Assembly: GCA_016700315.1 (NCBI GenBank)
Contig: CP065013.1
Location: 65,449-129,448 of the forward strand
Length of the DNA: 64,000 nt
Reading direction: 5' to 3'
Source: Candidatus Saccharimonadota bacterium
Lineage (GTDB): Bacteria > Patescibacteriota > Saccharimonadia > Saccharimonadales > SZUA-47
The notes under the pieces are model-generated. The model was not told the DNA's origin. It worked only from the letters and a program-made list of their open reading frames with translations, and made no database searches. Positions 9,628-63,374 of this stretch are shown in pieces (the first letter of the stretch is position 1; each line of letters starts with the position of its first letter). Both the position numbers and the translations under genes were made by a program.

Positions 9628-11045
9628 GTGAAACAGTACATATCAATTCTTGGGAGGCTACCAAAGCTCTCGCTAGCCGAGCTAGAGGCCGTTTTTGGGG
9701 CGCAAAATATCCAGCCCTTCACGAGCGAAGCGGCGATAATAAATAGCGAGGTCACCGCCGCCGACTACGCACGGCTTGGCGGCAGTCTTAAGCTTGCCAA
9801 AATACTGGCTGAGCTCCCAAACGATTGGCCGTCAATCGAGCAGTACTTAAGCCGCACCCTACCTGAACATGCTAGCTACACCCAGGGCAAGCTAACGCTA
9901 GGCATAAGCCTATATGGCCTCAGAGTCCCCGTGCCCAAACTCCAGCGGTCGATACTAGGCTTCAAAAAATTACTCAAAACTAGCGGCAAGCCTGTGCGAG
10001 TAATCCTCAACAAAAACCTCGAACTTTCAACCGCCGAAGTCTATCACAATAAATTGACAACTCAGAATGCTTGGGAGCTACTGATAGTTAGCAGCGGCAA
10101 GCAAACATACCTAGCCCAAACTAAATTTGTTCAAGATATTGATAGCTACGTTGCCCGCGACCGCGGCCGACCAAAGCGCGACAGCAGAGTTGGTATGTTG
10201 CCACCAAAACTGGCTCAGACCATCATCAACCTTGCAGTTGACGAGTACGGAGTGCAAGGTACGCGGTACGATAACAACGGGCTGGTTGGCGCAAGTAACG
10301 GCACACGGCCTGCGCTTGAGGAAGTTTCGGTGCCAAGAGGAAGCGCGCAACGAGCCGTAGTAAACTACGGTGAAGTGAACACTGGACTCTTGAAGCCGGA
10401 AATGCCCAAGAAGCCGGCAGAGTTTCTGGCTCAGCCAGAAAGCAGGCCGGCTGGCGCAGTCTGTGTGCTAGATCCGTTCTGCGGAACTGGCGTGGTGCTG
10501 CAAGAAGCTCTGTTGATGGGCTACAGCGCCTATGGCAGCGACCTAGAACCACGAATGATCGATTATTCAAGAGACAACTTAGACTGGCTCTAAAGAACGT
10601 GAACGATCAAGAGGAATGATCGCTTATCAACTATCAACGAGTTTCGTTCCTGGTGGGATGCAACCACTACTATCGCTGGGATTTTTCAAAGCTCAAAGCA
10701 CAAGGCTCAAAGCTTGCGATTGCCTGCGAGACCTACCTTGGGCCTCCTCTAACTAAGCAGATTTCCGACAACGAACTCAGCAAAATGGTTGCAGCCGTAG
10801 ATAGGCTGCACGAGAAGTTTTTGATTAACCTTGCCAGCCAGATTAGTGCCAACACTCGCCTCTGCTTAGCAGTACCGGCTTGGCGGCGCGGCGTACGGGG
10901 GTACAAAAAGCTACCTGTGCTTGAAAAGCTAGAGCAAATCGGCTATAATTGGGTGAAATACGAACATTGTGACAGCAAAAATTTGTTTTATGATCGTGAA
11001 GATCAGTTTGTTGCCCGCCAACTCGTAACTATCACTAAGCAATAA
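9628..11045 (+). pseudogene. Trm11/THUMP-like SAM-dependent RNA methyltransferase, split into two ORFs (9628..10593 and 10653..11045)
   Basis: ORF1 has GRPKRDSRVGMLPPKLAQTIINLA and motif I VLDPFCGTGVVLQEALLMGY. ORF2, in a different frame, has the motif-IV-like ACETYLGPP. Stops lie between them in all joining frames. Confidence 0.45.
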
Positions 11046-12714: not shown

Positions 12715-13155
12715 TTATGCTTCGTGAGGTAATTTTACGCCACTTTGTTTGGCGAGCTCAATAACTAGATTATAAATCTCTATCACTCTACCCTTTTGGG
12801 TTTTACTCTTAAAACTAGGCGTCGGCATATTTGCCATAGAATATAACTCTTTGATATCTGTTTCGATAGCAGCCAATCTACCTTCAACTCGGGTGAGCCT
12901 ATCAACAACATCACGTTGCGTTGATTCCATGCTAACCATGCGGGTTTCTAAGCCGTCCATGCGATTGTCCAAACCGTCCATGTGGGTTTCTAGACCGTCC
13001 ATGCGGGTTTCTAAGCCGTCCATGCGGGTTTCTAGACCACCGAACCTCTCATCTACTTTATCAAACCTGTCTGTAACTTCATTCGCAAAATTACCGATCA
13101 TATCTGTTAGCTGATCGATCTTTTTATCCAGGACTGTAAATTCATTAGACTTCAT
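12715..13155 (-). CDS. coiled-coil protein with five tandem MDGLETR-type heptads
   Basis: The ORF track starts at a TTG (13173); the first ATG is at 13155 (MKSNEFTVLDKK). The repeat reads GGLETRMDGLETRMDGLETHMDGLDNRMDGLETRM. Confidence 0.55.
   Translation of the reverse strand: MKSNEFTVLDKKIDQLTDMIGNFANEVTDRFDKVDERFGGLETRMDGLETRMDGLETHMDGLDNRMDGLETRMVSMESTQRDVVDRLTRVEGRLAAIETDIKELYSMANMPTPSFKSKTQKGRVIEIYNLVIELAKQSGVKLPHEA
12937..13041 (-). repeat. 5 x 21-nt tandem repeat inside the CDS
   Basis: The units on the + strand are catgcgggtttctaagccgtc, catgcgattgtccaaaccgtc, catgtgggtttctagaccgtc, catgcgggtttctaagccgtc and catgcgggtttctagaccacc. Confidence 0.9.
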
Positions 13156-13226
13156 ACTAACATTATAAATCAATCATGCGTACGAGGTTGCAGTATCTTT
13201 TACTTAAAAAACGGCAAAATCACAAC

Positions 13227-15316: not shown

Positions 15317-15388
15317 AAACCCCTTCTGCTCCCACGCTTATGGATATATTTTACACATTGCTCCGACAATAGACAAGAGAAATAAGAA

Positions 15389-15836
15389 GGCTTAAGGTTA
15401 TTGGTTAGACTGACTGGGAACCAAGGTCTAGGAGCTACGGACCCGGGTCTAGTAGCTAGCAAGTATTACCCCGTACTGCCTACCGCTCAAGTAGAGTCAA
15501 GAGTCAAGAGTCATGAACCAAGAGCTAGGGACTCGAATCTAGGGTCTAGGGACTAGGGACGAGTTTATAGTTTATAGTTGATGGTTTATAAAAGAGCAAT
15601 GATTAGGTTATAGGTTAGAGGTTAGAGTTTAGAGTGATTAGTAGGACTACGGTCTAGGGTCCAGGGACTAGGGTCTATTATAGAATTTAGAGCTTAGAAT
15701 TTAGAATTTTACGCTTGCTACTTACTACTAACTACTCGCTACTATCTCTGGGCTTATACTTTATACATAATACTTAATACTATCTAGAGCTTAGATTTTC
15801 TATCCCCTCGTTCATCGTCCGCCTTCGGTGGGCTTG
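15389..15836. repeat. mosaic of phase-locked heptanucleotide tandem repeats
   Basis: Manual phasing gives 58 consecutive 7-mers (15389-15794) in one register, in blocks of related units (gagtcaa x3, tagggtc/cagggac, tttatag, ggttaga, gaattta, ctactaa, ttaatac). Confidence 0.85.
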
Positions 15837-21525: not shown

Positions 21526-22200
21526 ATGGACTTACACCACGTACAAAGAGATGTAATTAAGAAACTAGTAGAGACATCAGGCGCTCGTTATTCAGATCTG
21601 AAGCCGAAGACTTTGGAGGGTAACGTGTTTACTTACCATCTGAAATCATTGATATCACAAAAACTAGTTCAGAAAGATAGAGATAGCTTATACTCACTTA
21701 CTAGCGAGGGTAAGCTATACTGCATAAACTCAAGCCAAAACAAAAAATTCACCCTTTATCAAGCTCATTCAATCATACTTATATACTCACTTATAGACGG
21801 ACTATGGTTGGTTAGAAAAAGACTTGTCCAACCGATGTTTGGAAAGTACGGATTTATTCACGGAGAACCGATAGCTGGGAAAACCATAATAGAGGCGGCT
21901 AAGTACGCACTGCTACGCAGAACTTCCCTAACTGCAGATTTTACCGTGATTGGCTCGGGCTTCATACATATCTCAGAAAATAATGAAACCGTTTCATATG
22001 TAAATTTTACCATGCTATTAGCAGTTAACTTGAAGGGTGAAATGATAGAGAAAGACGCGCATGGGGAGAACAAGTGGGTAACGTACTCAGAACTAATGTC
22101 GTTAGATTTAATCCCTAGTATGTGTGATCTTATCAACGCAGTTAAAAACAGTGAGATGTTTTTCCTAGACTTAAGCTACGATGTAGAAAGCTCCAAGTAA
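21526..22200 (+). CDS. winged-helix DNA-binding protein with a degenerate Nudix-like C-terminal domain
   Basis: The first ATG is at 21526 (the track starts at a TTG, 21523). The N-terminal wHTH pattern reads VQRDVIKKLVETSGARYSDLKPKTLEGNVFTYHLKSLISQKLV. The segment HGEPIAGKTIIEAAKYALLRRTSL resembles a Nudix box without its Glu residues. Confidence 0.5.
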   Translation: MDLHHVQRDVIKKLVETSGARYSDLKPKTLEGNVFTYHLKSLISQKLVQKDRDSLYSLTSEGKLYCINSSQNKKFTLYQAHSIILIYSLIDGLWLVRKRLVQPMFGKYGFIHGEPIAGKTIIEAAKYALLRRTSLTADFTVIGSGFIHISENNETVSYVNFTMLLAVNLKGEMIEKDAHGENKWVTYSELMSLDLIPSMCDLINAVKNSEMFFLDLSYDVESSK

Positions 22201-23249
22201 CTGAGCATAAACTCGTCAAGCCCACCGTCTAAGACACTCTGTGCATCAGTTGTCTCGTGCTTTGTTCGAGTATCTTTGACCATTGTGTATGGATGAAGGA
22301 CATAGTTTCGTATCTGGTTGCCCCACGCCGCCTGTTCATTCGGACCGCGTAGCTCACTTAGTTCTTCTTTGTGCTGCTCCTCAAGTAATTGCGCGAGCTT
22401 GGAGCGCAGAATCGTCATGGCCATGTCTTTGTTCTGAACCTGACTACGCTCATTCTGAATCGCCACGACAATCCCGGTTGGCAAATGCGTAATCCTTACA
22501 GCCGAGTCTGTAGTGTTGACACTTTGGCCACCTTTGCCACCACTTCGATAAACATCAATTTTGAGATCTTTTTCATCGATTACCACTTCACTATCTTGCT
22601 CAATAGCTGGTACGACTTCAACTTTGGCAAAAGAAGTCTGGCGCAGGCTGTCGGCATTAAAGGGACTTAGACGCACCAAACGATGTACACCATGCTCGGC
22701 TTTGGCAAGACCGTAGGCGTGTGGCCCAGCAATACTAAAAGTCACGCTCTTTAAACCCGCTTCCTCGCCGGCACTTCTGTCAATCACCACCGCCTTGAAG
22801 CCTTTCTGCTCTGCCCATCTTAGATACATCCGCTCCAGCATTTCTGCCCAATCTTGCGCGTCCGTCCCACCTGCCCCAGCGTGAATACTAATAATTGCTG
22901 GATAATCGTCGTGTGCCCCATTGAACAACAAGGCCGTTTTTAAGATGTCATACTCCGATTTAAGCTTGCTATATGACTGCTCTATTTCGCTACTCAGCGA
23001 CTCGTCACCGAGCTCAGCTAGCTCCGCCAGATCTTTGGCATTTTCGGTGAGCTTGGCCCATGTTTCTACTTCGTTTTTTAGGCTAGCAGCCTGACGACTG
23101 GTCGCCTCAGCGCTGCTTGGATCACCCCAAAAATCTGCTGCCTGCATCAACTGTTCCAACTTGGCTAAACTCTCAGATTTTTCAGTAATTTTAAGCTGGG
23201 CGGAAGCTTTTTTGATGTCTTCATAAAGCAGCTTGATTTCAGACAGCAT
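22176..23249 (-). CDS. prfB: peptide chain release factor 2
   Basis: It has the SPF tripeptide (VRLSPFNA) and the GGQ motif ([22 protein letters not shown]). I use the ATG at 23249; the track starts at a TTG, 23261. The frame is uninterrupted. Confidence 0.9.
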   Translation of the reverse strand: MLSEIKLLYEDIKKASAQLKITEKSESLAKLEQLMQAADFWGDPSSAEATSRQAASLKNEVETWAKLTENAKDLAELAELGDESLSSEIEQSYSKLKSEYDILKTALLFNGAHDDYPAIISIHAGAGGTDAQDWAEMLERMYLRWAEQKGFKAVVIDRSAGEEAGLKSVTFSIAGPHAYGLAKAEHGVHRLVRLSPFNADSLRQTSFAKVEVVPAIEQDSEVVIDEKDLKIDVYRSGGKGGQSVNTTDSAVRITHLPTGIVVAIQNERSQVQNKDMAMTILRSKLAQLLEEQHKEELSELRGPNEQAAWGNQIRNYVLHPYTMVKDTRTKHETTDAQSVLDGGLDEFMLSYLELSTS

Positions 23250-24538
23250 TACTTGCTCCAAACGGGCTTTAGGGTTTCGCTTAACTCACGTACAAAGCTA
23301 AGTTTTATGTTGCCTAGACTTGCAAGCCCCCAAATATTTTCCGTAAACATACTTTTGAACACCCTCGTCACATCTTCTACTGTCACAGCGTTCATACGCT
23401 CAGTAAAATGCGCAAAATCTTCTAGTTGATCTTCGAAATAGTATGAGGGTGTGTAACCGTTGACGATCCCGCTCACTGTCTGGCCTGAGCGCTGATACCG
23501 GCCGATGAGGTATTGGGTAGCAGCTTTGATCTCATGCTCTGCCAAAATCCCGCTATGAACACTGGCCAGCTCGTCGCGTATCATTTTGAAAAGTGCTGGC
23601 GCGTTAGCAAGGCTAACCTGCGCACCTAGCCACCAACCGTGACCTTTTTTGAGTGGCGACTGCCCTGAACCCATAGCATAAACCAATCCACGCTCACGAG
23701 CTAAGCCAAAAATCCTCGAATAAAGTGTCTCGGTAAGGAGCGTACTCGCTACAAGTAGCGCATCGCGGTCTTCGTTTTTGAGATGTTTCTTGGTGTAAGT
23801 GTCGAGATAAAAATACATATTTGGCACATGCGTACGTCTCACTACCAAAGGCTTAGCTAGCTTCCTTGGAACTTCCACTGGCAGCTCAAATCTAGGTCCG
23901 CCAGTCGGCACAGTCAAAAACTTAGTGAACATTTCCTCGATTTGCTGCTCGCGGCCCTTCAGTTTACCGGCAACAACGAATCGAGCGTTGTTGATTGTAT
24001 GGGTATTTCTATAATGATCGGCGACGTCTTTTAGGGTCACCTCCTTCATGGCTTCCAGGCGTTTTTGGTCGGTCATTGCTATAAGCCCCATCTGTTCCCG
24101 AAGAGCAATATTGAGATGGCGAAAATGATTATTGCTCCGACCGACTAATTCTTCACGAACATTACCGGCTTCGCTGACAAATTCTTCCTCCAAAAAAAGC
24201 GGTTCGGCAATGGCTACCAACAACAGCTCTAGCACCCGCTTCCATTCAAAATCTGCACACTCCGACTCGTAAGTTATGTCATAAACACCTGTAGAAGCGT
24301 TGCAGTAAGCACCGTTTTTTTCTATTTCAGCCTGGAATTCGCGAGCTTTTGGATAGCGCTTATTGGCACCAAGCAGCACATGTTCCATCAAATGCGCAGT
24401 CTCCCACTTACCACGCTCTAGAAGGTACTCACCTGCGCGAAAGTTTATCTCTGTATATAGAACATCTGCATCTGGCACATCAACGAATAAACCCTTGAGG
24501 CCGCTTTTGAACTTCACTTCTGTGATTGTATGTTTCAT
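23249..24538 (-). CDS. M16 (pitrilysin/insulinase) family zinc peptidase
   Basis: 429 aa with the HxxEH motif in TAHLMEHVLLG. Its stop overlaps the prfB ATG (TAATG). Confidence 0.8.
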   Translation of the reverse strand: MKHTITEVKFKSGLKGLFVDVPDADVLYTEINFRAGEYLLERGKWETAHLMEHVLLGANKRYPKAREFQAEIEKNGAYCNASTGVYDITYESECADFEWKRVLELLLVAIAEPLFLEEEFVSEAGNVREELVGRSNNHFRHLNIALREQMGLIAMTDQKRLEAMKEVTLKDVADHYRNTHTINNARFVVAGKLKGREQQIEEMFTKFLTVPTGGPRFELPVEVPRKLAKPLVVRRTHVPNMYFYLDTYTKKHLKNEDRDALLVASTLLTETLYSRIFGLARERGLVYAMGSGQSPLKKGHGWWLGAQVSLANAPALFKMIRDELASVHSGILAEHEIKAATQYLIGRYQRSGQTVSGIVNGYTPSYYFEDQLEDFAHFTERMNAVTVEDVTRVFKSMFTENIWGLASLGNIKLSFVRELSETLKPVWSK

Positions 24539-29862: not shown

Positions 29863-29921
29863 GTACTTAGGTTATAGGTTTTAGGTTAGAGGGTCTAGGG
29901 TTAAAGTTACAACTAGGATGA

Positions 29922-30392: not shown

Positions 30393-31088
30393 TTATTTAT
30401 ACCACGTTAGGCTGCTAACTGCAACAATTGAGGCGGTTTCGGCGCGGAGGGTGAATTGACCGAGATTAAGTTTTTCACAATTGGCTGCCAATAGCTCTTT
30501 TTCTTCTTCGGTCCAGCCGCCCTCAGGACCGATGAAAACCCCTACGGCGCTTGGTAGATGGGATGTAGTAGATAGTAGATGGTCTGATTGCTCGGCAAAA
30601 TATAAATCAATTTTACCTTCAAATTCTTTGAGAGCTGTTTCGAGATGAATTGGCTCACGCACGCGCGGGACGTCGGAGCGTCCGCACTGCTCTGCCGCCT
30701 CGACAACTATTTTTGCTGCTCGCTCAAGGTTGAAGCCGGTCTTCTCGGTTCTTGAACTAAGTATGGGCACAAAATGTCGCACACCAAGCTCGGTGCACTT
30801 CTGGAGTACCCAATCATTTTTGTCTTTTTTGAGCAAAGAAAAAAGCAGATACAAATCACGTTCTGGTATACGCCTTTCAAGCTCAGTAACCAACTTTAGC
30901 TGCACAGCCCCATTACCAATCCTTGTAAGTTCGTATAGTCTGTCTTCTCGCTCTCCGTCAAACAGCACGAGTTGAGATCCTGTCTGATATCTTAGGACGC
31001 TAAGCCATTGCCTGAGTAAGTTTTTGTCATCTACCCAGATCGACTCGCCAAGTTCAGTATCTTTAACAAAAAAACGGTGTTGTTTCAT
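30393..31088 (-). CDS. rsmE: 16S rRNA (uracil1498-N3)-methyltransferase
   Basis: 231 aa. MKQHRFFV ... KKDKNDWVLQKCTELGV ... IGPEGGWTEEE ... TLRAETA matches the RsmE pattern. Confidence 0.8.
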   Translation of the reverse strand: MKQHRFFVKDTELGESIWVDDKNLLRQWLSVLRYQTGSQLVLFDGEREDRLYELTRIGNGAVQLKLVTELERRIPERDLYLLFSLLKKDKNDWVLQKCTELGVRHFVPILSSRTEKTGFNLERAAKIVVEAAEQCGRSDVPRVREPIHLETALKEFEGKIDLYFAEQSDHLLSTTSHLPSAVGVFIGPEGGWTEEEKELLAANCEKLNLGQFTLRAETASIVAVSSLTWYK

Positions 31089-43759: not shown

Positions 43760-43856
43760 ATGTAATTGATTATAGATTATAGATTATAGAATTCCGAATT
43801 TTGTGGGACCATTAAGTTGCACTGACCCAAATAGACATAAAATCTACCCGCAGCGA

Positions 43857-43960
43857 ACTACTACTAACTACTAACTACTAACTACTAACTACTAACTACT
43901 AACTACTAACTACTAACTACTAACTACTAACTACTAACTACTAACTACTAACTACTAACT
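43857..43960. repeat. (CTACTAA)14 perfect heptamer array abutting the greA stop codon
   Basis: I counted 14 consecutive perfect copies at 43861-43958, plus a degenerate copy on the lysS-proximal (low-coordinate) side. On the transcribed minus strand the unit is TTAGTAG. Confidence 0.95.
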
Positions 43961-44421
43961 TATGATATTTCAGCTACTTTGTAACTATCAATGCCTGCCG
44001 GCGTCTTGATTTCTACTTGGTCGCCAACTTTTTTACCGATTAATGCCTGGCCAATTGGCGATTCATCGCTAATTTTACCTTTAAGAGGGTCAGCTTCAAC
44101 TGTGCCTACTACCTGGAACTCTTTCGCCTTACCGTCGTCGCTCTTGAGCTTCACGTTACTACCCATGGCAACTTTGTTATCGCCTTTGGGTTTTGCAATC
44201 ACTTCAACATTTAGAAGTATATTTTCAATATCAGAAATTCTGCCTTCGGCTTTGTTCTGCTCTTCACGCGCTGAGCTATACTCAGCATTCTCGGCCAAAT
44301 CACCAAATTCACGAGCGGTCTTTATACGCTCGGCTACCGCCGTTCGCTGACTCTTAAGTAGTTCTAGCTCTTTCTCAAGTTCGGCCACCCCTTCTTTGGT
44401 CAAGTGAAACTGCTTTTTCAT
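43960..44421 (-). CDS. greA: transcription elongation factor GreA
   Basis: 153 aa. AREFGDLAENAEYSSAREEQ lies in the coiled-coil finger, followed by the C-terminal FKBP-like domain. Confidence 0.9.
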   Translation of the reverse strand: MKKQFHLTKEGVAELEKELELLKSQRTAVAERIKTAREFGDLAENAEYSSAREEQNKAEGRISDIENILLNVEVIAKPKGDNKVAMGSNVKLKSDDGKAKEFQVVGTVEADPLKGKISDESPIGQALIGKKVGDQVEIKTPAGIDSYKVAEIS

Positions 44422-50545: not shown

Positions 50546-50629
50546 AAAAAATCCTTTCAGTAAATTTTAGTTGTTGGTAGATAGAAGATGGTAGATGGTA
50601 GCTCTCAACTACCAAATACTAACTACTGC

Positions 50630-51510: not shown

Positions 51511-53280
51511 TCAATACTCTTTGTGCAACTTTTGGCGGTTCCAAAGCTTGGCGTAAAGCCCGTTTTTCGTAAGCAAAGCTTCATGACTGCCTTCTTCTAT
51601 AATCCTACCTTTGTCAACCACTATGATGCGGTCCATGTGAGAAAGTGTACTCAAACGGTGGGCCACTACAATGGCTGTTTTACCCTTAAATATTTCAACA
51701 AATGAGTCCTTTATAATCTGCTCACTCTCACTATCGAGCGCGCTGGTGGCTTCGTCAAAAACGACAATTGGTGTATTTTGTAGTACAGCGCGCGCGATCG
51801 CTACACGCTGCTTCTGGCCGCCGCTAAGTTTTACTCCTCTCTCGCCAACTACACTTTGATAACCCAGTGGTAGCACGTCTATGAACTCTGCGGCGTGCGC
51901 AGCTTTAGCAGCCTTTTTGACTTTATCCACCGAGGCATCAGGCTGACCGATCAAGATATTGTTGAGAATTGTATCGTGAAAAAGTAGCGGTTCTTGAGCC
52001 ACGTAAGCAACTTGCGAGCGTAGATCTTTTTGGAGCAAACTCCGAACATCAAAGCCATCAATCAAAACACTGCCTTCTTGCACATCTTCAAAGCGCATGA
52101 GTAGCTTTGTTAGTGTACTTTTGCCAGCACCACTTATACCAACAACACCCAACTTTTCTCCACGCTTTATTTTGAGATTGAATTTATCAAAAACCTTCGC
52201 AGCACCAGGCTCATAGGCAAAAGTCACATCAGAGAAGTCAATATCTCCTTTTATCCGCCCTACTGTTGCCGGTTCCGCCGGGTCGGTAACTGTGCTTTTA
52301 TAAGAGTATACCTCAAGCGCTGGCAAAATTTTGTCTACATAATCATCATGTTCTTCTACTTTGTCCGACAATTCATAAATAGCTGTCATAATCGACAAGC
52401 TGTAAGCCGCCATCAACACAGCTTCGGCCACACCGATCGCCCCACTTTTCATTCGTGAAACGGTGAGAAGAAATGTCAACAGAAAGAACACAACCGTTAT
52501 ACCTTCACGTATTAGAGCTAGTTTGGCCTGCTTGATATAACGAGTTGTAAATAGTTTAGTTTCACGCTGCAACTTGACTTTCAAATCTTCCGACTTGGAG
52601 TCTTCCTGCGCTGTTGAACGTACCGCCAAGATATTAGAAATAGTGTCTGAAATGAAGCCAGAGCCTAGCCTGTATTGTTCACGTGACTCGCTACGTAGAC
52701 TAGATAAGGCATTAGAAGCCCAAAACAAGTAGACTATCTGAACGCCAGCAAGGATAGCGGTCGCCAAACCCAGTGGAATATCATAGTAAGCTATAACCCC
52801 CACCGGCATGACGATAGCCATGACGGCGTTGATATATTTATCTCGCAAACTCCTCTCAAGATTCAAGGTATTATCAGAAAATTGCCTGACAGAAGTCGTA
52901 AGGTAGCCTGCCATGTTGTCGTTAAAAAACTTCATGTCAGTCGACAGCAGTTTGGCGAAGTAGTCCTTTACGGCAGATGCATATATTCGGTTTTCGTCTC
53001 TCAGTGACAAAAACTTGGTTGCAGGGTTAAGAAGCCCAAGCAGTGCAGAAAAGATTGCATACATAAAGCTAAACTTAACTGCGGCCGCAAAATCATACCG
53101 CGACAAGTGATAGACAATGCGACTAACCATAATTGGGAGCATTATCAGTTTACAAACCCTACTCAACATCAAAGTCAGATACGAAGCACGGACTTTCCAA
53201 CTCTGACCATAAGTAGACCACAGCAAGCCGTAAACAAGCCGATAATCAGCTAGTGCTTTCTTTTTTCCCATTGAATTCAT
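51511..53280 (-). CDS. ABC exporter, fused permease/ATPase (MsbA-like type I exporter)
   Basis: 589 aa with a six-TM N-terminal half. It has Walker A GISGAGKST, signature LSGGQKQR and Walker B VVFDEATS. Confidence 0.85.
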   Translation of the reverse strand: MNSMGKKKALADYRLVYGLLWSTYGQSWKVRASYLTLMLSRVCKLIMLPIMVSRIVYHLSRYDFAAAVKFSFMYAIFSALLGLLNPATKFLSLRDENRIYASAVKDYFAKLLSTDMKFFNDNMAGYLTTSVRQFSDNTLNLERSLRDKYINAVMAIVMPVGVIAYYDIPLGLATAILAGVQIVYLFWASNALSSLRSESREQYRLGSGFISDTISNILAVRSTAQEDSKSEDLKVKLQRETKLFTTRYIKQAKLALIREGITVVFFLLTFLLTVSRMKSGAIGVAEAVLMAAYSLSIMTAIYELSDKVEEHDDYVDKILPALEVYSYKSTVTDPAEPATVGRIKGDIDFSDVTFAYEPGAAKVFDKFNLKIKRGEKLGVVGISGAGKSTLTKLLMRFEDVQEGSVLIDGFDVRSLLQKDLRSQVAYVAQEPLLFHDTILNNILIGQPDASVDKVKKAAKAAHAAEFIDVLPLGYQSVVGERGVKLSGGQKQRVAIARAVLQNTPIVVFDEATSALDSESEQIIKDSFVEIFKGKTAIVVAHRLSTLSHMDRIIVVDKGRIIEEGSHEALLTKNGLYAKLWNRQKLHKEY

Positions 53281-53355
53281 TATACTAAGATGACTGCATA
53301 AAAACTAACTCCTTGACTAAGAAGTTAGGCTCATGTATAGTTATTGTTAAGTTTT

Positions 53356-53694
53356 ATGAAAAAAGATATCCACCCGACCAATTATCAGTTTGTTGTTTTC
53401 GAAGATTTGAACGACGGCACGCGCTTTTTGACACGCGCATGTGTTGCCAGTGAGGAAACAACTAAATGGGAAGATGGCAACACCTACCCATTAGTTAAAG
53501 TGCACATTTCAAGCTCTTCTCACCCATTCTTCACTGGTCAAGAGAAGCTAATCGACATCGAAGGCCGCGTTGACAAGTTTGAAGCTCGCCGCAAAGCCGC
53601 CGAAGAAGCCCGCAAAGCCGCTGCCGCTCGTGTCAGCAAGGCAGATAAAAAAGCTGCGAAAGCCGAAAAAGACGAATCCAAGAAAATAGGTTAG
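53356..53694 (+). CDS. rpmE: 50S ribosomal protein L31 (type B, no CxxC) with a Lys/Ala-rich C-terminal extension
   Basis: First ATG at 53356. [21 protein letters not shown]...HPFFTG matches the L31 pattern. Confidence 0.85.
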
Positions 53695-53717
53695 AGGTTA
53701 TAGGTTAGAGGTTATAG
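53689..53717. repeat. heptamer tract ggttaga ggttata ggttaga ggttata overlapping the rpmE stop
   Basis: Read directly from the sequence. An inverted, imperfect copy lies inside prfA at 54318-54348. Confidence 0.85.
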
Positions 53718-53721
53718 ATAA

Positions 53722-54075
53722 ATGCCTATAACTTCTTACGAGCAACTTACCGTATGGCAAAAGTCTTTCGAACTAGTGAGACAAGTGTATGTTTTGACAG
53801 AAAAGCTGCCTAAACACGAGCAGTTTGGGTTATCTAACCAGATTCGACGTTGTGCAGTTTCGATACCAAGTAATATAGCTGAAGGACAACAAAGACATAG
53901 CCGAAAAGAGTATCTGCAGTTTCTGGCAATAGCAAGAGGCTCGGCTGCAGAACTGGATACCCAACTACTACTTATTGAGAGTATCTACGGTTTAGATTGC
54001 GAAAAAGAACTAAGCTTACTAGACGAAGTACAAAGAATGCTTACTGTATTAACAAATAAACTTAGCGCTTTATAA
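53722..54075 (+). CDS. four-helix-bundle protein (23S rRNA intervening-sequence protein / Avd-like family)
   Basis: 117 aa. [70 protein letters not shown] is the family signature. Confidence 0.8.
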
Positions 54076-54082
54076 TATACTT

Positions 54083-55135
54083 ATGGATAAACACGGCAAA
54101 CTAAAAGAAGAACTATCGCAAATCGACTTACAATTAAGCGATAGCTCTATATACTCGTCGCCTAAATACCCTGCACTCGCTAGAAGAAAAAGTGAAATAG
54201 AGAAGCTAAATGAGCTTTTTGAGCAACAAGCGAAACTATCTAGAGATCTCAAAGAAGCTGAAGTATTAGCAAATGGTACTGATGAACTTGCCGAACTAGC
54301 TAAGGAAGAAGTTAAATCTATAACCTCTAACCTCTCCACTATAACCTCGAGTCTGGAGGAGGCTTTGCTTCCCAAAGACCCGAATGATAACAAAGACTGC
54401 ATTATTGAAATTCGGGCTGGCGCTGGTGGTGACGAGTCAAGCCTTTTCGGAGCTGAGCTATACAAAATGTATGCACGCTACGCCGAGACTCACTCCCTCA
54501 AAATCGAGCTTTTAAGCGAAAGCCCAAGTGAAGTCGGCGGTTTCAAAGAAATAATCTTTGCCGTCCGCGGCGACAGCGCATATGGCCTGCTCAAATATGA
54601 GGCCGGCGTGCACCGTGTACAACGCGTCCCTGCTACAGAAAGTCAGGGCCGGATTCATACCTCGACTGTCACTGTTGCCGTACTGCCTGAAGCCGAAGAA
54701 ACAGACATCGAAATCAGCCCGAACGACCTGCGCATAGATGTCTACCGCAGTAGTGGTAATGGCGGCCAAAGCGTCAACACTACCGACTCGGCGGTACGTA
54801 TTACTCATTTACCAAGTGGAGTGGTTGTAACCTGCCAAGATGAAAAGTCCCAGATCAAAAACAAGCTAAAAGCTATGGGCGTGCTCCGCTCGCGCCTACT
54901 TCAGGCCAAAATTGACGCTGAAAACGCTAAGCTCAGCGCTGAACGGAAAGCGCTCATTGGCTCTGGCGATCGTAGCGAAAAAATCCGCACCTACAACTTC
55001 CCTCAAGACCGCATTACTGACCACCGAATTGGCTACTCGCGCTCTAACATCCCAGCAGCACTTGCTGGGCAGATCGAAGACCTCTTTGAAGAGCTCAAAA
55101 AAGCCGAACTCTCCTTGCTAAAAACCGAAGTTTAA
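54083..55135 (+). CDS. prfA: peptide chain release factor 1
   Basis: 350 aa with the PAT tripeptide ([17 protein letters not shown]) and the GGQ motif ([22 protein letters not shown]). Confidence 0.9.
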
Positions 55136-55242
55136 ACGTTTTAGAACTTGTCTCATGTGTTACTTATACGATGTAACATCGTAGTTTTTGCGAATATTTA
55201 CAACATAGCAACTGAGATTAGATACCTAGTCAGTAAGACAGC

Positions 55243-55269
55243 AAAAAAAAGCACCTATCATAAAGGTGC
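55243..55269 (-). terminator. Rho-independent terminator (minus strand)
   Basis: On the minus strand the stem is gcacct / ttatgat / aggtgc, followed by tttttttt (+ strand A-run at 55243-55250). Confidence 0.6.
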
Positions 55270-55358
55270 CTCCAAAAAATCACCTGTACTTAAACAAATG
55301 TTTATTAGATTGTACTACTTAGCCAGTACTACCAGTTTGCGTTTCTGTACGGTCCCAT
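55243..55358 (-). ncRNA. candidate small RNA in the prfA-prmC spacer
   Basis: Minus-strand promoter-like TTGAAT (55392-55387), a 16-nt spacer, then TATCAT (55370-65). About 115 nt further on is the terminator above. The only ORF inside is 8 codons. Confidence 0.3.
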
Positions 55359-55443
55359 GCATTTATGATATCAACCTAGCTGATATATTCAAAATTGTAT
55401 ACCATTTTTAGTTAGTTTGGCCGTTGTTGAGTACAATACTTCT

Positions 55444-56292
55444 ATGACTATTAAAAGATGGATTTTAGATAGTACTCTATTATTAAGCCCCTACTCCGCT
55501 ACCGCAAGATTAGACTGCGAGGTATTGCTAGCGCACGTTTTAGACAAAGATAGAGTTTGGCTGCTGGCTCACCCAGAGCACGTTCTTCAAGGACAGTCCC
55601 TGAAAAGAGTAGATCGGTATTTGCAGCGCCGTAAATCTCAGGAACCGATCGCTTACATAATCGGCCACAGTGAATTTTATGGGCGTGAGTTTGAGGTTTC
55701 GGCTGATACTCTGCAGCCGCGCCCGGAAACAGAGACCATGGTTGAGCTTCTTCTCGACACAATAAACAGTAAACAGTTGTCGGTAAACAGTATTGTTGAT
55801 GTTGGCACTGGATCTGGCGCAATTATTATCTCTGCATTCCTAGAGCTCTCTATCAACCATAAACTATCAACTATCAACTTCCATGCTACCGACATCAGCC
55901 CAGCTGCTTTAGAAATCGCCCGTCAAAACGCTAAGAGGTACGATGCTGATATCAAATTCTATCAAGGAGATTTACTAGGTCCCCTACTATCTACTATCTA
56001 CCATCTACCATCTGCCATAATTCTGGCTAATCTGCCCTATGTGCCAGACAGCCACACAATCAATCAAGCCGCCATGCACGAACCAAAACACGCTATTTTC
56101 GGCGGCACTGATGGCCTCGATTTGTATAGAACTATGTTCGACCAACTATCAACTATCAACTATCAACTATCAACTATCCTGTTTACAGAATCTTTACCTC
56201 CGCAGCATAAAGAATTAGCTCGGATTGCCGAACAAGCTGGCTTCAAGCAAATTGCCGAACAAGACTTTATCCAAGTTTTCGAAAAAAAGTAA
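55444..56292 (+). CDS. prmC: release-factor glutamine methyltransferase PrmC-like, with heptamer-encoded segments and NLPY in place of NPPY
   Basis: EPIAYIIGHSEFYGREFEV, LQPRPETE and motif I VDVGTGSGAI are present. Motif IV reads ANLPYV. I start at the ATG at 55444; the track starts at a TTG, 55417. Confidence 0.7.
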   Translation: MTIKRWILDSTLLLSPYSATARLDCEVLLAHVLDKDRVWLLAHPEHVLQGQSLKRVDRYLQRRKSQEPIAYIIGHSEFYGREFEVSADTLQPRPETETMVELLLDTINSKQLSVNSIVDVGTGSGAIIISAFLELSINHKLSTINFHATDISPAALEIARQNAKRYDADIKFYQGDLLGPLLSTIYHLPSAIILANLPYVPDSHTINQAAMHEPKHAIFGGTDGLDLYRTMFDQLSTINYQLSTILFTESLPPQHKELARIAEQAGFKQIAEQDFIQVFEKK

Positions 56293-56316
56293 TACTTTTT
56301 GTGTATAATTGCAATA

Positions 56317-56919
56317 ATGAATGTCGGGATTAGTAAAACTCAACGTACTGAGCTGGACACGATGTCTAGCCCAGAAGTATTAGGCAGATATTTTGAAAGT
56401 CTTCAGCAAGTAGCACGGCAAGGAGAAGCCATACGCGAAGAGGTAACAGACGGAGAAATCGAAGGAGCGTACACAGCTGGGTGGTCTTTAGGCAATCTAC
56501 GCTTTATTGAGGGCAAAGACCCTATCGAATCGGCCGATTTAGACCCAGTTACTATAACTAATGCCAAGTTTTTCAGAGCTCAGACTAGACTAGAAAGTTA
56601 TATTAACAACCGTTTTTTGGGCAGTATGGTGCAAGTAATACCACTCGATCAAGAAATTGTAGCAGCAAGAGCACCCTGGGGGACACTGTCTGTTGTGCCA
56701 CACTTTCTGAGGGGTGGTGAGACGAGACTTAATCATGCAAGATTACTAGCATTTGGGACTTCATCAAATGGCCGAACGGTGTTGTCTGTTGTAACAAGAC
56801 GAGGCTTACCTTCTATTACCCACTATATGAACATCGTTGGACCTGACGGTCCCAAAATCAGCATTAGTGTTAGAGATGACAAAAAACGCATGTCAGCAAA
56901 ATCTATATCCAGACTTTAG
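56317..56919 (+). CDS. hypothetical protein
   Basis: First ATG at 56317, with TATAAT at 56304-56309 just upstream. No recognised domain. Confidence 0.45.
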   Translation: MNVGISKTQRTELDTMSSPEVLGRYFESLQQVARQGEAIREEVTDGEIEGAYTAGWSLGNLRFIEGKDPIESADLDPVTITNAKFFRAQTRLESYINNRFLGSMVQVIPLDQEIVAARAPWGTLSVVPHFLRGGETRLNHARLLAFGTSSNGRTVLSVVTRRGLPSITHYMNIVGPDGPKISISVRDDKKRMSAKSISRL

Positions 56920-57010
56920 TATGTAACTTACTGAAACTTAGCCCCCTTCTTCGAACTCCTGAGGAGTTGAGTGCCAAATAGACAATCAGAATGATGGGAG
57001 TGTTTTAATA

Positions 57011-57035
57011 CCCCACGAAATATCATTTCGTGGGG
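57011..57035. terminator. 11-bp stem hairpin in a convergent intergenic region
   Basis: ccccacgaaat / atc / atttcgtgggg. It lies between the 3' ends of 56317..56919 (+) and htrA (-). There is no strong U-tract. Confidence 0.45.
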
Positions 57036-57237
57036 GCCACTATTAAAGCTTAATCAAGAAAAATATTATTGTGTATTTTTCTTGTCAAGCAAGTTGCCCG
57101 AATATTGTCTTATTTGACTACGAAAGCATCAAGAGTTTGAAGCGGGGGTCGTTTCTTTCGTCTATTTCTTTGCGACAAAAGAAATGGACTCGACAAAGCC
57201 AGGCGAAGCCGGGTGGCGAAACAAGGTGAAAAAGTGA

Positions 57238-58410
57238 CTAATTGCTTGGGGCGGCTTCGAGAGTAACAGTAATAGTTTGCTCTTTGCCGTCTCGTAAAAT
57301 TGTCAGATCAACTTTGTCGCCGACTGATTTACTGCCCAAAATACTCACCAGACTCCTCTTGGGAGTAATTGCTTCACCTGCAATTTTGGTGATGATGTCT
57401 TTTTCTTGAAGGCCTGCTTTTTCTGCGGGGCTGCCCGACACAATCGAGGCTGAGTTTCGGCTCGGAATAATGTAAGCACCCTCCTGAACGGGTAAATTAT
57501 ATGTGTAGGCCAGATCTGCGGTGATCGAAGCGTAGCGCACACCAAGATACGGCCGCTCAAGCTTACCCTTATCGAGAACTGTTTTAATCAACGGCTGAAT
57601 ATCATCAATCGGAATTGCGAACCCTATATTCTCTGCCCCGCCGCCGGCAACAGCGGTATTGATCCCAATAACTTCACCTTTTAGATTAACCAAAGGCCCG
57701 CCAGAGTTGCCCTGATTGATAGATGCATCTGTCTGAAAAAGATTTAGTAAGGTTTCGGTCTGTGCGCTGCCACTGCTATCGCCAGCCTGGATAGAGCGTC
57801 CAAAACCCGAAATAATGCCGCTAGTAACCGTGTTCTGAAATTGGCCGAGAGCGTTACCGATTGCTACCACACGGTCGCCAACTTTTACATCGGCTGATTT
57901 GCCTAGAGCCGCCGGCTTCAGCTCTTTACCTTTGGCATCTTTGATCTTCAGAAACGCTACGTCCAGAGGATCGGTTGCATTGGTTCTGCCCAAGACTTCA
58001 ACCTGATCTAGTTCGGTTCCATCTGACAAAGTAATGCTGACCTTATCGTTAGCATTAGGTACCACATGACGGTTAGTGATGACCACACCTTCTTTGGTTA
58101 GGATAAGGCCGGTGCCCGCACTCTCCTGCTCAAAACTCTGAGTTCCAAAAAAGACACTGTTTTGAGTAGCGGTACCAGTCACATTGATAGAGACGACGCT
58201 ATCACCCATATTTTTACTAATCTGACTGATAAGGTCGCCTTCGCTATTGATGACTTCTCGTTGCACCTGGGTGTTGCTTGCCTGCTGGACTTTAGTGTTA
58301 TTAGCTAACAGTCCGCCGCCAAAACCAGCCAGTACAGCTAGCGCTAGCATTCCGAATCGTGATATTTCTAATGTTTTTTTTGATGAAGATAAGCTCTGCT
58401 CTGGTTTCAT
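57238..58410 (-). CDS. htrA: HtrA/DegP family serine protease with PDZ domain
   Basis: 390 aa with an N-terminal TM anchor, the catalytic GNSGGPLVN and a C-terminal PDZ domain (GSPAEKAGLQEKDIITKI). Confidence 0.85.
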   Translation of the reverse strand: MKPEQSLSSSKKTLEISRFGMLALAVLAGFGGGLLANNTKVQQASNTQVQREVINSEGDLISQISKNMGDSVVSINVTGTATQNSVFFGTQSFEQESAGTGLILTKEGVVITNRHVVPNANDKVSITLSDGTELDQVEVLGRTNATDPLDVAFLKIKDAKGKELKPAALGKSADVKVGDRVVAIGNALGQFQNTVTSGIISGFGRSIQAGDSSGSAQTETLLNLFQTDASINQGNSGGPLVNLKGEVIGINTAVAGGGAENIGFAIPIDDIQPLIKTVLDKGKLERPYLGVRYASITADLAYTYNLPVQEGAYIIPSRNSASIVSGSPAEKAGLQEKDIITKIAGEAITPKRSLVSILGSKSVGDKVDLTILRDGKEQTITVTLEAAPSN

Positions 58411-61607: not shown

Positions 61608-63374
61608 TTAACGAGACGCTAAAAATACCTTGTTTGAATCAAGTGACCTATTTAAGACTTCGGCTGAGGTGAGCCTAGCGAAGTTGGCATAGCCGCCGAT
61701 GTGAGCTAGGTTAGTTAGACCTTCGGCTGAGGTGAGCCTATCGAAGTAGGCATCGCCGCCGATGTGAGCTAGGTTAGTTAGACCTTCGGCTGAGGTGAGC
61801 CTATCGAAGTAGGCATCGCCGCCGATGTGAGCTAGGTTAGTTAGACCTTCGGCTGAGGTGAGCCTAGCGAAGTTGGCATAGCCGCCGATGTGAGCTAGGT
61901 TAGTTAGACCTTCGGCTGAGGTGAGCCTAGCGAAGTTGGCATAGCCGCCGATATGAGCTAGGTTAGTTAGACCTTCGGCTGAGGTGAGCCTATCGAAGTT
62001 GGCATAGCTGCCGATGTGAGCTAGGTTTGTTAGACCTTCGGCTGAGGTGAGCCTATCGAAGTAGGCATCGCCGCCGATGTGAGCTAGGTTAGTTAGACCT
62101 TCGGCTGAGGTGAGCCTATCGAAGTTGGCATCGCCGCCGATGTGAGCTAGGTTAGTTAGACCTTCGGCTGAGTTGAGCCTAGCGAAGTTGGCATAGCCGT
62201 TTATCGTTCTAACTCCTTCAAGTATTAGAGCAAGAAGCTCGTTACTATTACCAAAGTAATTAACATCTACATTTGAATTATTGATTATGTCTGCTAAATT
62301 ACTTGGCCGACTAGATAGATCGTATTCGTCACTGAAACTAAGGCTGCCAAACAATACGTCTGACGCATCGAGATTTGCTAGCTTTTCCAGTTCGACCAGC
62401 TGACCCTGCCGCGTGAGTAACGTGTTTTCTGGTAGTTTAATATCCAGCACTTTAGGAGGCTTTTCATCTCTCGCAAGCTTGCTCATTAGTACCCCCAGAC
62501 CAGCAAAAACCTCCTCCCAATTTTGGCCACCAACAACCACAGCTTTATTGTCGCTAGTCTTGATCTGCTTTATGCTGTGGCTTGCAACGACATATTCGAT
62601 AGAATAGTGCTGACTAGAAGCATCAGCCTGATTTACTCGTATCGAGAAGAACCTTGCTTTGCCAACTTCAAGAGCTTTAGAGTAGGAGGTAGACGTACCG
62701 ATACAGTGACCGGTTACAACCGACTCTTGGGCTAAATGTTCTTTAGTAGTAAGCTCTACAAGACTGAATGAGTCACTTTCGTGGATTAAGCTAGGTTCGG
62801 CACCTTCGGCGTTGGCGGCATTGCGCCTAGCTTCGGCAATCCTTTGCTCGGTTACCGCATTGTGGCGTGCTATAAGCTTGCCTATGCCACCGTTATTTTT
62901 GGCTGCTTTCGGAGCAGTGGCTGGGGCGATGCAACCTAAAGTTTCAGAACTCAGCTCAGTCAAAGGAACTTTGAACCACTCAACTACGCTTGCTCGTTTT
63001 TTGGCGATGCTCTTGCTGGTGGCAGCAGGATTGCTTACATAGGCTAGTAGCCCTTCGATTATGGAGTCGGCTATAGTTGAAGAATCGGCTACATCCTCAT
63101 TTGCCTGACTACCGTCAAGGACTGATTCGATAAAGTACTGCGCAATTTTATGAGCTAGCAGCCTTCTACGCTCACCTTTTGTTTCTCCGTTATTATCTGA
63201 GCCTAGGAACTCACCAACATATGTCATATTGCGCTGCGCAGTGTACTCTACGAGTTGGTCGCGCTCAGCCAGTGTCCCAACTACTTCATCTGTAAGTTTT
63301 TCAACCGAACCTAGGAATGCTAACTGCTCAGGGGTCAAAGCTTCGATTGATGGCAATATGGATGTCATGGTCAT
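61608..63374 (-). CDS. PcfJ-like domain protein fused to a C-terminal array of 21-aa leucine-rich repeats
   Basis: 588 aa. The central segment LAQESVVTGHCIGTSTSYSKALEVGKARFFSIRV...HYSIEYVV..IKQIKTSDNKAV fits my memory of the PcfJ-like motif. The C-terminus has 8 full LTSAEGLTNLAHIGGxAxFxR units. Confidence 0.6.
   Translation of the reverse strand: MTMTSILPSIEALTPEQLAFLGSVEKLTDEVVGTLAERDQLVEYTAQRNMTYVGEFLGSDNNGETKGERRRLLAHKIAQYFIESVLDGSQANEDVADSSTIADSIIEGLLAYVSNPAATSKSIAKKRASVVEWFKVPLTELSSETLGCIAPATAPKAAKNNGGIGKLIARHNAVTEQRIAEARRNAANAEGAEPSLIHESDSFSLVELTTKEHLAQESVVTGHCIGTSTSYSKALEVGKARFFSIRVNQADASSQHYSIEYVVASHSIKQIKTSDNKAVVVGGQNWEEVFAGLGVLMSKLARDEKPPKVLDIKLPENTLLTRQGQLVELEKLANLDASDVLFGSLSFSDEYDLSSRPSNLADIINNSNVDVNYFGNSNELLALILEGVRTINGYANFARLNSAEGLTNLAHIGGDANFDRLTSAEGLTNLAHIGGDAYFDRLTSAEGLTNLAHIGSYANFDRLTSAEGLTNLAHIGGYANFARLTSAEGLTNLAHIGGYANFARLTSAEGLTNLAHIGGDAYFDRLTSAEGLTNLAHIGGDAYFDRLTSAEGLTNLAHIGGYANFARLTSAEVLNRSLDSNKVFLASR
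61659..62205 (-). repeat. about 8.7 x 63-nt near-identical tandem repeat (coding LRR units)
   Basis: The unit start ttcggctgagg recurs at 61659, 61722, 61785, 61848, 61911, 61974, 62037, 62100 and 62163, an exact 63-nt spacing. Confidence 0.9.

Follow-up and report, generated by a model that had tools for sequence, protein, structure and literature searches.

Period-7 repeat arrays within the reading frame of a Saccharibacteria prmC gene

The prmC gene, which codes for the release-factor N5-glutamine methyltransferase, occupies positions 55444-56292 of a 64,000-nt stretch of Candidatus Saccharimonadota contig CP065013.1 (the window, here meaning that whole stretch). Its open reading frame (ORF) contains runs of heptanucleotide units, and its catalytic motif IV reads NLPY at the position where NPPY is canonical. 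The locus raises the question of whether a working enzyme can tolerate such low-complexity patches, or whether the gene is decaying even though its substrates are present. The tracts are interpreted here, with a probability of about 0.6, as heptanucleotide arrays similar to the STRRs (repetitive sequences made of short units in tandem) of heterocyst-forming cyanobacteria, i.e., as repeat DNA tolerated in permissive loops of a functional enzyme.

The prmC gene and its four tracts

The gene and its relevant elements are as follows. Copy numbers and percentages are those of Tandem Repeats Finder, and invariance refers to A1, an alignment of 24 Saccharibacteria PrmC orthologs.

55444-56292, plus strand: prmC, release-factor N5-glutamine methyltransferase, 282 amino acids, intact (TIGR03534, PF17827, AlphaFold2 model)
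55759-55792, plus strand: tract 4, degenerate AACAGTA/ACAGTAA array, 4.9 copies, 66%; residues 106-117
55798-55818, plus strand: motif I, DVGTGSG, binding of S-adenosylmethionine (SAM); D119 and G121-G125 invariant
55850-55879, plus strand: tract 1, CTATCAA array, 4.3 copies, 82%; residues 136-146
55984-56018, plus strand: tract 2, CTACTAT/CTACCAT array, 5.0 copies, 92% (CTACCAT); residues 181-192
56029-56040, plus strand: motif IV, NLPY at the NPPY position; invariant
56143-56178, plus strand: tract 3, CAACTAT array, 5.1 copies, 100%; residues 234-245

The encoded protein is 100% identical to QQS65059.1 (Candidatus Saccharibacteria). It scores 211.5 bits against the TIGR03534 equivalog profile, for which the cut-off is 199.1, and contains the PrmC_N helical domain (PF17827, E = 1.2e-16). 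Its AlphaFold2 model has a mean predicted local distance difference test score (pLDDT) of 84.6, with the HemK/PrmC structures 1NV8 and 2B3T as the top matches. Both substrates of the enzyme are encoded in the window, as the original prediction had noted, namely release factor 1 (RF1, 54083-55135) and RF2 (22176-23261), each with its GGQ motif. The RF1 gene, prfA, is linked to prmC and lies 308 nt upstream of it. The spacer that separates the two (55136-55443) is dispensed with in 29 of 67 orthologous loci, where the genes abut.

The relatives used for comparison comprise 80 prmC loci from Saccharibacteria, retrieved together with 10-kb flanks, and 72 metagenome loci, labelled L001 onward. Two of them, the strains L001 and L003, are about 98% identical to the window at the nucleotide level and served to estimate the ratio of nonsynonymous to synonymous polymorphism (pN/pS). 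Outside the tracts the ratio is 0.07-0.10, a range that indicates strong purifying selection on that part of prmC. Inside the tracts it rises to 0.4-0.54, and overall divergence there (~7%) is near the synonymous divergence of the gene (~9%).

Motif IV does indeed read NLPY in the window, with the Asn, the second Pro and the Tyr of NPPY retained; what did not hold is the suspicion that this is a defect. Of the 120 best protein matches, 119 have NLPY. It also appears in 74 of the 76 genes extracted from the loci of relatives and in 8 further loci found by motif, although the extracted set is biased, as the retrieval pattern itself contained NLPY. Independently sampled Saccharibacteria-like metagenome loci carry it in 16 of 19 cases, the remaining three being incomplete, and so do 10 of 32 distant prmC genes with a readable motif. 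Since NLPY is invariant in the complete Saccharibacteria orthologs and recurs in distant prmC genes, it is best viewed as a lineage variant, the normal motif IV of the Saccharibacteria lineage, and not as a lesion. In annotation it should count as a normal PrmC motif in this group.

Tandem Repeats Finder recovers the three tracts described originally and adds the degenerate fourth. The translations given for tracts 1, 2 and 3 were reproduced as LSINHKLSTINF, LLSTIYHLPSAI and DQLSTINYQLSTIL, and the reading frame stays open despite the 7-nt units, as predicted, in five strain alleles. In the AlphaFold2 model, tract 4 lies between helix 94-110 and strand 116-120 (β1), tract 1 between helix 126-137 (αA) and strand 145-150 (β2), tract 2 between strand 171-174 (β3) and strand 190-195 (β4), directly before ILANLPY, and tract 3 between helix 226-236 (αD) and strand 243-249 (β5). 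The tracts had been thought to replace structured segments of the enzyme. This is only partly right: the bulk of the tracts corresponds to connecting loops of variable length, and of β4 and β5 just the initial residues are touched. Compared to Thermotoga HemK, the window PrmC is longer by 2, 7, 2 and 4 residues at tracts 4, 1, 2 and 3, respectively, and tract 1 also represents some 6-7 extra residues compared to most orthologs. Loop length covers a continuous range of 15 to 23 codons, and no quantization of loop length by 7 residues was seen among the prmC orthologs. A seven-residue periodicity at the protein level was detected in only 1 of 120 PrmC orthologs, because an array does not extend over two full peptide periods. 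On the alignment and the model, the tract sites appear to be loops whose length varies among orthologs rather than replaced core structure, and prmC would seem to remain functional with the arrays as part of its reading frame.

The tract sites in orthologs and strains

Arrays were sought in 76 prmC orthologs under a rule that required three or more copies and allowed no more than one mismatch. Ten genes, which represent 7 independent lineages, have period-7 arrays, whereas the control periods yield a single gene (period 5) or none (periods 6, 8, 9 and 10). Every flagged period-7 array falls on one of the four tract sites of the alignment, and the independent metagenome sample added the arrays of L086-L089. 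Across the ~90 Saccharibacteria orthologs, the shared loops of prmC bear heptamer arrays of differing units. The arrays are absent from most prmC orthologs, and distant prmC loci that are not Saccharibacteria-like show no enrichment of period 7.

The tract-2 site is the main hot spot, with strong arrays built on the units ATCTGGA (L004), CCTACTT (L007), GCCCTCA (L008), TTCAACT (L022), CTACAAC (L038), TCGAGAC (L044), CTTCCAT (L086) and CCAACTA (L088). The tract-2 array of L087 falls below the strict rule, and about 15 more orthologs carry degenerate arrays at this site. Strong arrays at the tract-4 site are found in L038, L086, L087, L089 and L128, and the tract-3 site has arrays in L004 (TCAAATA) and L022 (AGTTGAA). 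Had the tracts arisen by ordinary divergence, as the original prediction reasoned, relatives might show the same residues free of nucleotide periodicity. The opposite was found: orthologs with similar residues (PSTVYQLP and alike) retain a residual nucleotide period of 7, and in orthologs that have no flagged array the identity at lags 7 and 14 is 0.300 at tract 2, versus about 0.25 elsewhere.

In a neighbor-joining ordering the arrays are concentrated in the clade nearest the window, and the units within this array-rich clade are only one or two bases apart (ATCTACC, ATCTTCC, ATCTTCA, CAACTAC and others). Such a distribution agrees with vertical descent during which the unit drifts, and indicates that the arrays have long occupied these prmC sites in one Saccharibacteria clade.

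The mode of change can be followed in five alleles of the window species (the window, L001, L002, L003 and L084, the last of which starts at residue 81). The first 395 nt of prmC are identical in the four alleles that cover the region, and the differences pile up in or near the tracts. Tract 3 reads CAACTAT CGACTAT CCACTAT CCACTAT CCACTGT in L001 and L003, and CAACTAA CGGCTAT AAACTAT CAACTAT CAACTAT in L084. Three adjacent units of L001 and L003 share an A-to-C change (CCACTAT) that falls in three different codon positions, and the change is therefore a concerted one at the level of DNA rather than the outcome of selection on the protein. More generally, the unit sequence drifts among lineages, and changes within an array are concerted. 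Tract 1 of L002 and L084 belongs to a different heptamer family (GTAAACA type) and is longer by 15 nt. A saltatory replacement of the tract was considered in this case, yet a recombination patch of about 60 nt fits better, because the flanking codons changed as well.

Period-7 arrays in the window and the explanations they allow

The tracts of prmC are not isolated. Under a rule requiring at least 2.5 copies, 9 exact period-7 runs were observed in the window versus 0.0 expected from Markov-1 shuffles, and none of periods 8-13. This outcome answers the question, raised originally, of whether the periodicity is significant. A looser rule (17 of 21 matches) gives 14 blocks at lag 7 and none at lags 5, 8, 10, 11 and 13. 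Period 7 is the sole enriched period among those compared, and it accounts for 25 of the 51 Tandem Repeats Finder rows in the window, with many different units; the 64 kb contain at least 15 different repeat units. Most of the blocks are intergenic (6 of 9 strict, 10 of 14 relaxed). The 520-nt spacer 15317-15836 consists of nine successive heptamer arrays of different units, and the spacer 43765-43961 is built almost wholly of such arrays, including (ACTACTA)x14.4 at 43860-43960. No convincing local inverted partners were found for the intergenic arrays at 43.8, 18.6 or 48.3 kb, and the arrays at 15.3-15.9 kb have weak inverted partners only (71-86%, 13-21 nt). Arrays of the prmC unit families also occur elsewhere in the window in both orientations (15562-15590, 50563-50601 and 10625-10638), and another is translated:

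30543-30578, minus strand: degenerate tract-2-family array within rsmE (30393-31088), encoding HLLSTTSHLPSAV, just ahead of the GPEGG strand

The rsmE peptide HLLSTTSHLPSAV resembles the tract-2 peptide LLSTIYHLPSAI of prmC. The prmC tracts probably belong to the same class as the period-7 arrays that fill the intergenic spacers of this genome.

A second coding hot spot lies in prfA, next to a four-helix-bundle (FHB) gene, and involves the following features:

53686-53719, plus strand: AGGTTAG/AGGTTAT array directly upstream of the FHB gene (Tandem Repeats Finder periods 7 and 14); left arm of inverted repeat I1
53722-54075, plus strand: FHB gene between rpmE and prfA (TIGR02436/PF05635, 23S_rRNA_IVP family; TIGR02436 at 118.8 bits, cut-off 24)
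54316-54347, plus strand: degenerate array in prfA (ATAACCT CTAACCT CTCCACT ATAACCT), RF1 residues about 79-89; right arm of I1
L043 9200-9235, L033 8693-8722, L038 8509-8531 and L001 66-95: arrays at the prfA site in relatives

PF05635 is recorded for the identical FHB gene in L002, and the order rpmE-FHB-prfA recurs in L160 and L163. The arms of I1 (53688-53719 and 54316-54347) are 32 nt long, 84% complementary and 596 nt apart. L043 shows the same layout with entirely different units (GTAGTTT/AAACTAC, 23 nt, 87%), and in both cases the right arm lies within the prfA coding sequence. The prfA arrays share a single site in domain 1 of RF1 (residues about 79-92), where the unit is AAACTAC in L043, AGCTTTG in L033, AACCTCT in L038 and AAAACTC in L001; it thus differs even between the window and its 98%-identical strain L001. 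When the pairing of this hot spot with upstream sequence was compared to shuffles in 71 loci, it stood out in the window clade and in L043 only, and the pairing is therefore not general. The unit AGGTTAG/AGGTTAT (complement CTAACCT) recurs across several genera, often directly upstream of the FHB start codon. It is found in the window at 15605-15634, 29868-29898 and 53688-53717, in L014 (1795-1821, 5893-5924) and L038 (8509-8531), and upstream of the FHB gene or prfA in L011, L033, L035 and L163. This unit holds a Shine-Dalgarno-like core, GAGGT, and its complement resembles the anti-Shine-Dalgarno sequence.

The flanks of FHB cassettes were compared in a uniform test (110-nt flanks against 200 shuffles, 16 distinct cassettes). 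Significantly complementary heptamer-array flanks were found in 10 of the 16, comprising six Saccharibacteria and four Nostoc/Anabaena plasmids. The Nostoc edaphicum plasmid carries TAGGGAG arrays upstream and TCCCTAC arrays downstream of its FHB gene, while a 50-kb stretch of the same plasmid that lacks an FHB gene has only three period-7 arrays. The possibility that the prmC arrays were seeded from the cassette arms was also considered. The units match in L011, and those of prfA and tract 4 match in L038, yet there is no match in the window, L043 and L044, and such seeding therefore remains unproven.

The presence of the same loops with different units in many relatives indicates a tolerated, genome-wide repeat class, and therefore not a decaying gene. 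In the class-I methyltransferase topology, the SAM and substrate site is at one edge of the sheet, and the loops that enter the strands are at the opposite edge. If the tract loops are so placed, the enzyme could accommodate the arrays, which would have no role in the protein itself. Their repetitiveness may be maintained by slipped-strand mispairing and template switching, both within an array and between neighboring arrays, and purifying selection would discard every variant that breaks the frame.

Several points weigh against this explanation. All 13 strong coding arrays in the 1.25 Mb of sequence around prmC lie in prmC (10) or prfA (3), and no strong array was found in the remaining roughly 1 Mb of coding DNA of these loci, a concentration which a purely passive model does not predict. 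Neither the 7-base period nor the preference for prmC and prfA is accounted for. Slippage by a single unit breaks the frame, and arrays could therefore survive deep divergence only through events that leave their length unchanged or through an active process. Arms that are complementary but differ in sequence from lineage to lineage could just as well result from selection for a paired structure. Finally, the position of the loops on the far face is taken from the textbook class-I topology and not from measured coordinates.

The behavior of the arms leads to a tentative proposal, whereby heptanucleotide arrays, STRRs included, may be the paired arms of a system around S23p/PF05635 genes which resembles the intervening sequence (IVS) of 23S rRNA and is common to Saccharibacteria, Nostocales and the Coxiella 23S IVS. 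If this were true, the prfA and prmC arrays would be working or recently copied arms, either RNA stems processed by RNase III or sequences written or maintained by machinery linked to the cassette. This would explain their clustering in the operon beside the cassette, the retention of complementarity in spite of turnover, and their persistence across the clade. No paper was found that states a general association of heptamer arrays with FHB genes.

The main rival of the tolerance reading, though an unlikely one, is that the arrays are selected stem arms, of RNA or single-stranded DNA, which fold the rpmE-FHB-prfA-prmC transcript, for example as RNase III targets. The stems would then control processing or translation, and the protein loops would merely supply sequence space for the arms. 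The pairing of the array upstream of the FHB gene with that of prfA (AGGTTAG/CTAACCT) speaks for such a role, as does the retention of arm complementarity while the unit changes completely between the window and L043. So do the inverted arrays which bracket the FHB gene in 10 of the 16 cassettes tested, and the Coxiella IVS, where heptameric repeats stand at the 5' end and the first repeat holds an RNase III site (PMC4990558). Within prmC, tract pairs were scored against a between-gene null with a maximum of 9 for inverted pairs (99th percentile 8) and 11 for direct pairs. Inverted scores reach 21 for tracts 2/3 of L022, 19 for tracts 4/2 of L087, 13 in each of L011 and L089, and 12 for tracts 4/3 of the window. 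Complementarity of tracts 4 and 2 is shared by L087, L011, L089 and L038, and tracts 2 and 3 of L022 pair over 30 nt at 90% complementarity, with an RNA fold z of -4.41. In the window, the 3' flank of tract 4 (55780-55800) is 86% complementary to 56169-56189. Direct scores are high as well, with 24 for tracts 1/3 of the window and 24 for tracts 4/3 of L011, and an array thus often repeats another of the same gene, either directly or as its reverse complement. Under the tolerated-repeat reading, these matches speak for exchange between arrays.

Other observations do not favor stem arms. Tracts 1-3 of the window are in direct orientation, the predicted fold of its prmC RNA does not surpass that of shuffled sequences (z = -1.62, not significant) and leaves the arrays unpaired, and the arm mismatches in the window, judged by eye, are not G-U compatible. 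The arrays of L004, L008 and L044 lack partners, most orthologs are free of arrays, and the divergence of the tracts among strains is near the synonymous rate. Moreover, template switching at quasi-palindromes would also preserve the complementarity of arms that have no function.

It is very unlikely that the tracts act as a phase-variable (contingency) switch, in which prmC would be switched off and on by gain or loss of a 7-bp unit, with the methylation of release factors modulated as a result. Five perfect CAACTAT units do form a slippage-prone tract inside the ORF, and a putative methyltransferase at 9628-11045 is disrupted beside heptamer arrays. However, tracts 2 and 3 are of identical length and the frame is open in all five alleles, which come from independent assemblies. 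No one-unit length difference exists among these prmC alleles (in assemblies only, not reads), and there is therefore no sign of phase variation. A tblastn-based scan of metagenomes gave no frameshifted close allele, but recovered only one further close allele. The tracts are, in addition, short (4-5 units) and located mid-gene.

The decay of prmC into a pseudogene, one of the two options offered by the original prediction, is now highly improbable; the low-complexity patches and NLPY would be its lesions. The departure of motif IV from canonical NPPY and the relaxed pN/pS within the tracts are what might be expected of decay. Nevertheless, this option is rejected, and the other, tolerance of the patches, is supported, because the protein scores above the equivalog cut-off, NLPY is invariant across a phylum-level sample, purifying selection acts outside the tracts, and the model is a confident, normal-looking HemK-like fold; the frame is also intact in all strains. 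Ordinary divergence, chance low complexity or an assembly artifact, the last suggested by the origin of the genome as a metagenome assembly from activated sludge, can practically be discounted in view of the excess of period-7 runs over shuffles, the empty control periods and the recurrence of the arrays in independent JGI, ENA and NCBI assemblies.

Related systems and other features of the window

A close parallel to the arrays is provided by the STRR repeats, which likewise consist of tandem 7-nt units of many sequences, are dispersed and mostly intergenic, and can sit within a conserved gene. The Nostoc/Anabaena plasmid arrays found here share with those of the window their occurrence as inverted pairs, including around FHB genes. 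Unlike STRRs, the present arrays belong to Saccharibacteria rather than heterocyst-forming cyanobacteria, and are translated in frame in prmC, prfA and rsmE, at loop positions conserved across genera. Their units presumably differ from the classical STRR1-3. No paper was found that links Saccharibacteria to heptanucleotide or 7-bp repeats.

Rickettsia palindromic elements, which are reportedly selfish repeats inserted in frame, offer a second comparison. Each of these is one palindrome of about 100-150 bp. Like them, the arrays form a dispersed family that occurs in frame in housekeeping genes, at permissive surface sites, with function kept, and produce near-identical peptides in unrelated genes (prmC LLSTIYHLPSAI versus rsmE LLSTTSHLPSAV). 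The arrays differ in being tandem, 21-36 nt long, composed of 7-nt units and subject to concerted turnover.

The 23S rRNA IVS of Coxiella and Leptospira also places the gene of a PF05635/TIGR02436 protein between complementary flanks. In Coxiella, three tandem heptameric repeats (GACAGAT) are located just upstream of the S23p ORF, and their copy number varies among strains (PMC4990558). The cassette of the window, in contrast, lies between rpmE and prfA and not in 23S rRNA, and its right arm is part of the prfA coding sequence, as in L043. Region 53000-57300 has no match to a known RNA family in Rfam, even at E ≤ 1. Simple-sequence contingency loci, such as the tetra- and heptanucleotide repeats of Haemophilus (PMC2651432), resemble the tracts in having short tandem repeats inside an ORF with a unit that is not a multiple of three. 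They differ from the present case, in which the five alleles display no copy-number polymorphism, the arrays are short, and a housekeeping gene takes the place of a surface or restriction-modification gene as host.

If the tracts are tolerated repeats, a repeat class known from heterocystous cyanobacteria would also be present in a phylum of ultrasmall genomes, inside essential genes of translation termination and translated in frame. The sites would then form a natural map of the loops of a class-I methyltransferase and RF1 that accept an arbitrary sequence of 7-12 residues, and the arrays would provide a system for the study of concerted evolution of a period-7 repeat under reading-frame constraint. 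The use of arrays as complementary arms in two unrelated phyla may be a testable lead on the origin and role of both STRRs and the FHB/23S-IVS proteins. In annotation, such in-frame tracts should not be taken as signatures of a pseudogene.

Several further features of the window concern repeats or the surroundings of prmC. A 206-amino-acid ORF (56299-56919), just 3' of prmC, is without a Pfam or NCBIfam match. In strain L002 (6849-7195, compared to window 56283-57247) this ORF is absent, with a heptamer-rich spacer of ~330 nt in its stead, and PrmC has a different C-terminus (FEFSSK). A 63-bp tandem repeat (8.6 copies, 96% identity, 61658-62199) is contained in the long minus-strand ORF 61608-63374, and remains in frame, as its length corresponds to 21 codons as well as to 9 x 7 bp. 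The minus-strand ORF 12715-13173 contains a 21-bp tandem repeat (4.9 copies, 80%, 12936-13038), 21 bp being equal to three heptamers.

The second gene that had been implicated in the original prediction is the TIGR01177-like methyltransferase at 9628-11045, at whose break the same heptamer family was said to appear. The match of ORF 9628-10593 to TIGR01177 already ends at profile position 225 of 330, and a continuation runs in another frame to 11045, for which a frameshift near 10590 is needed; a TGA follows at 10618. On this evidence the gene does look broken. The CAACTAT-family dimer is likewise real (TATCAAC x2, encoding SLINYQ, 10625-10638), but the break adjoins the dimer rather than falling inside it. 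The same gene region contains TCAAAGC x4 at 10686-10714, just ahead of a motif-IV-like strand, and this place before motif IV corresponds structurally to that of tract 2 in prmC.

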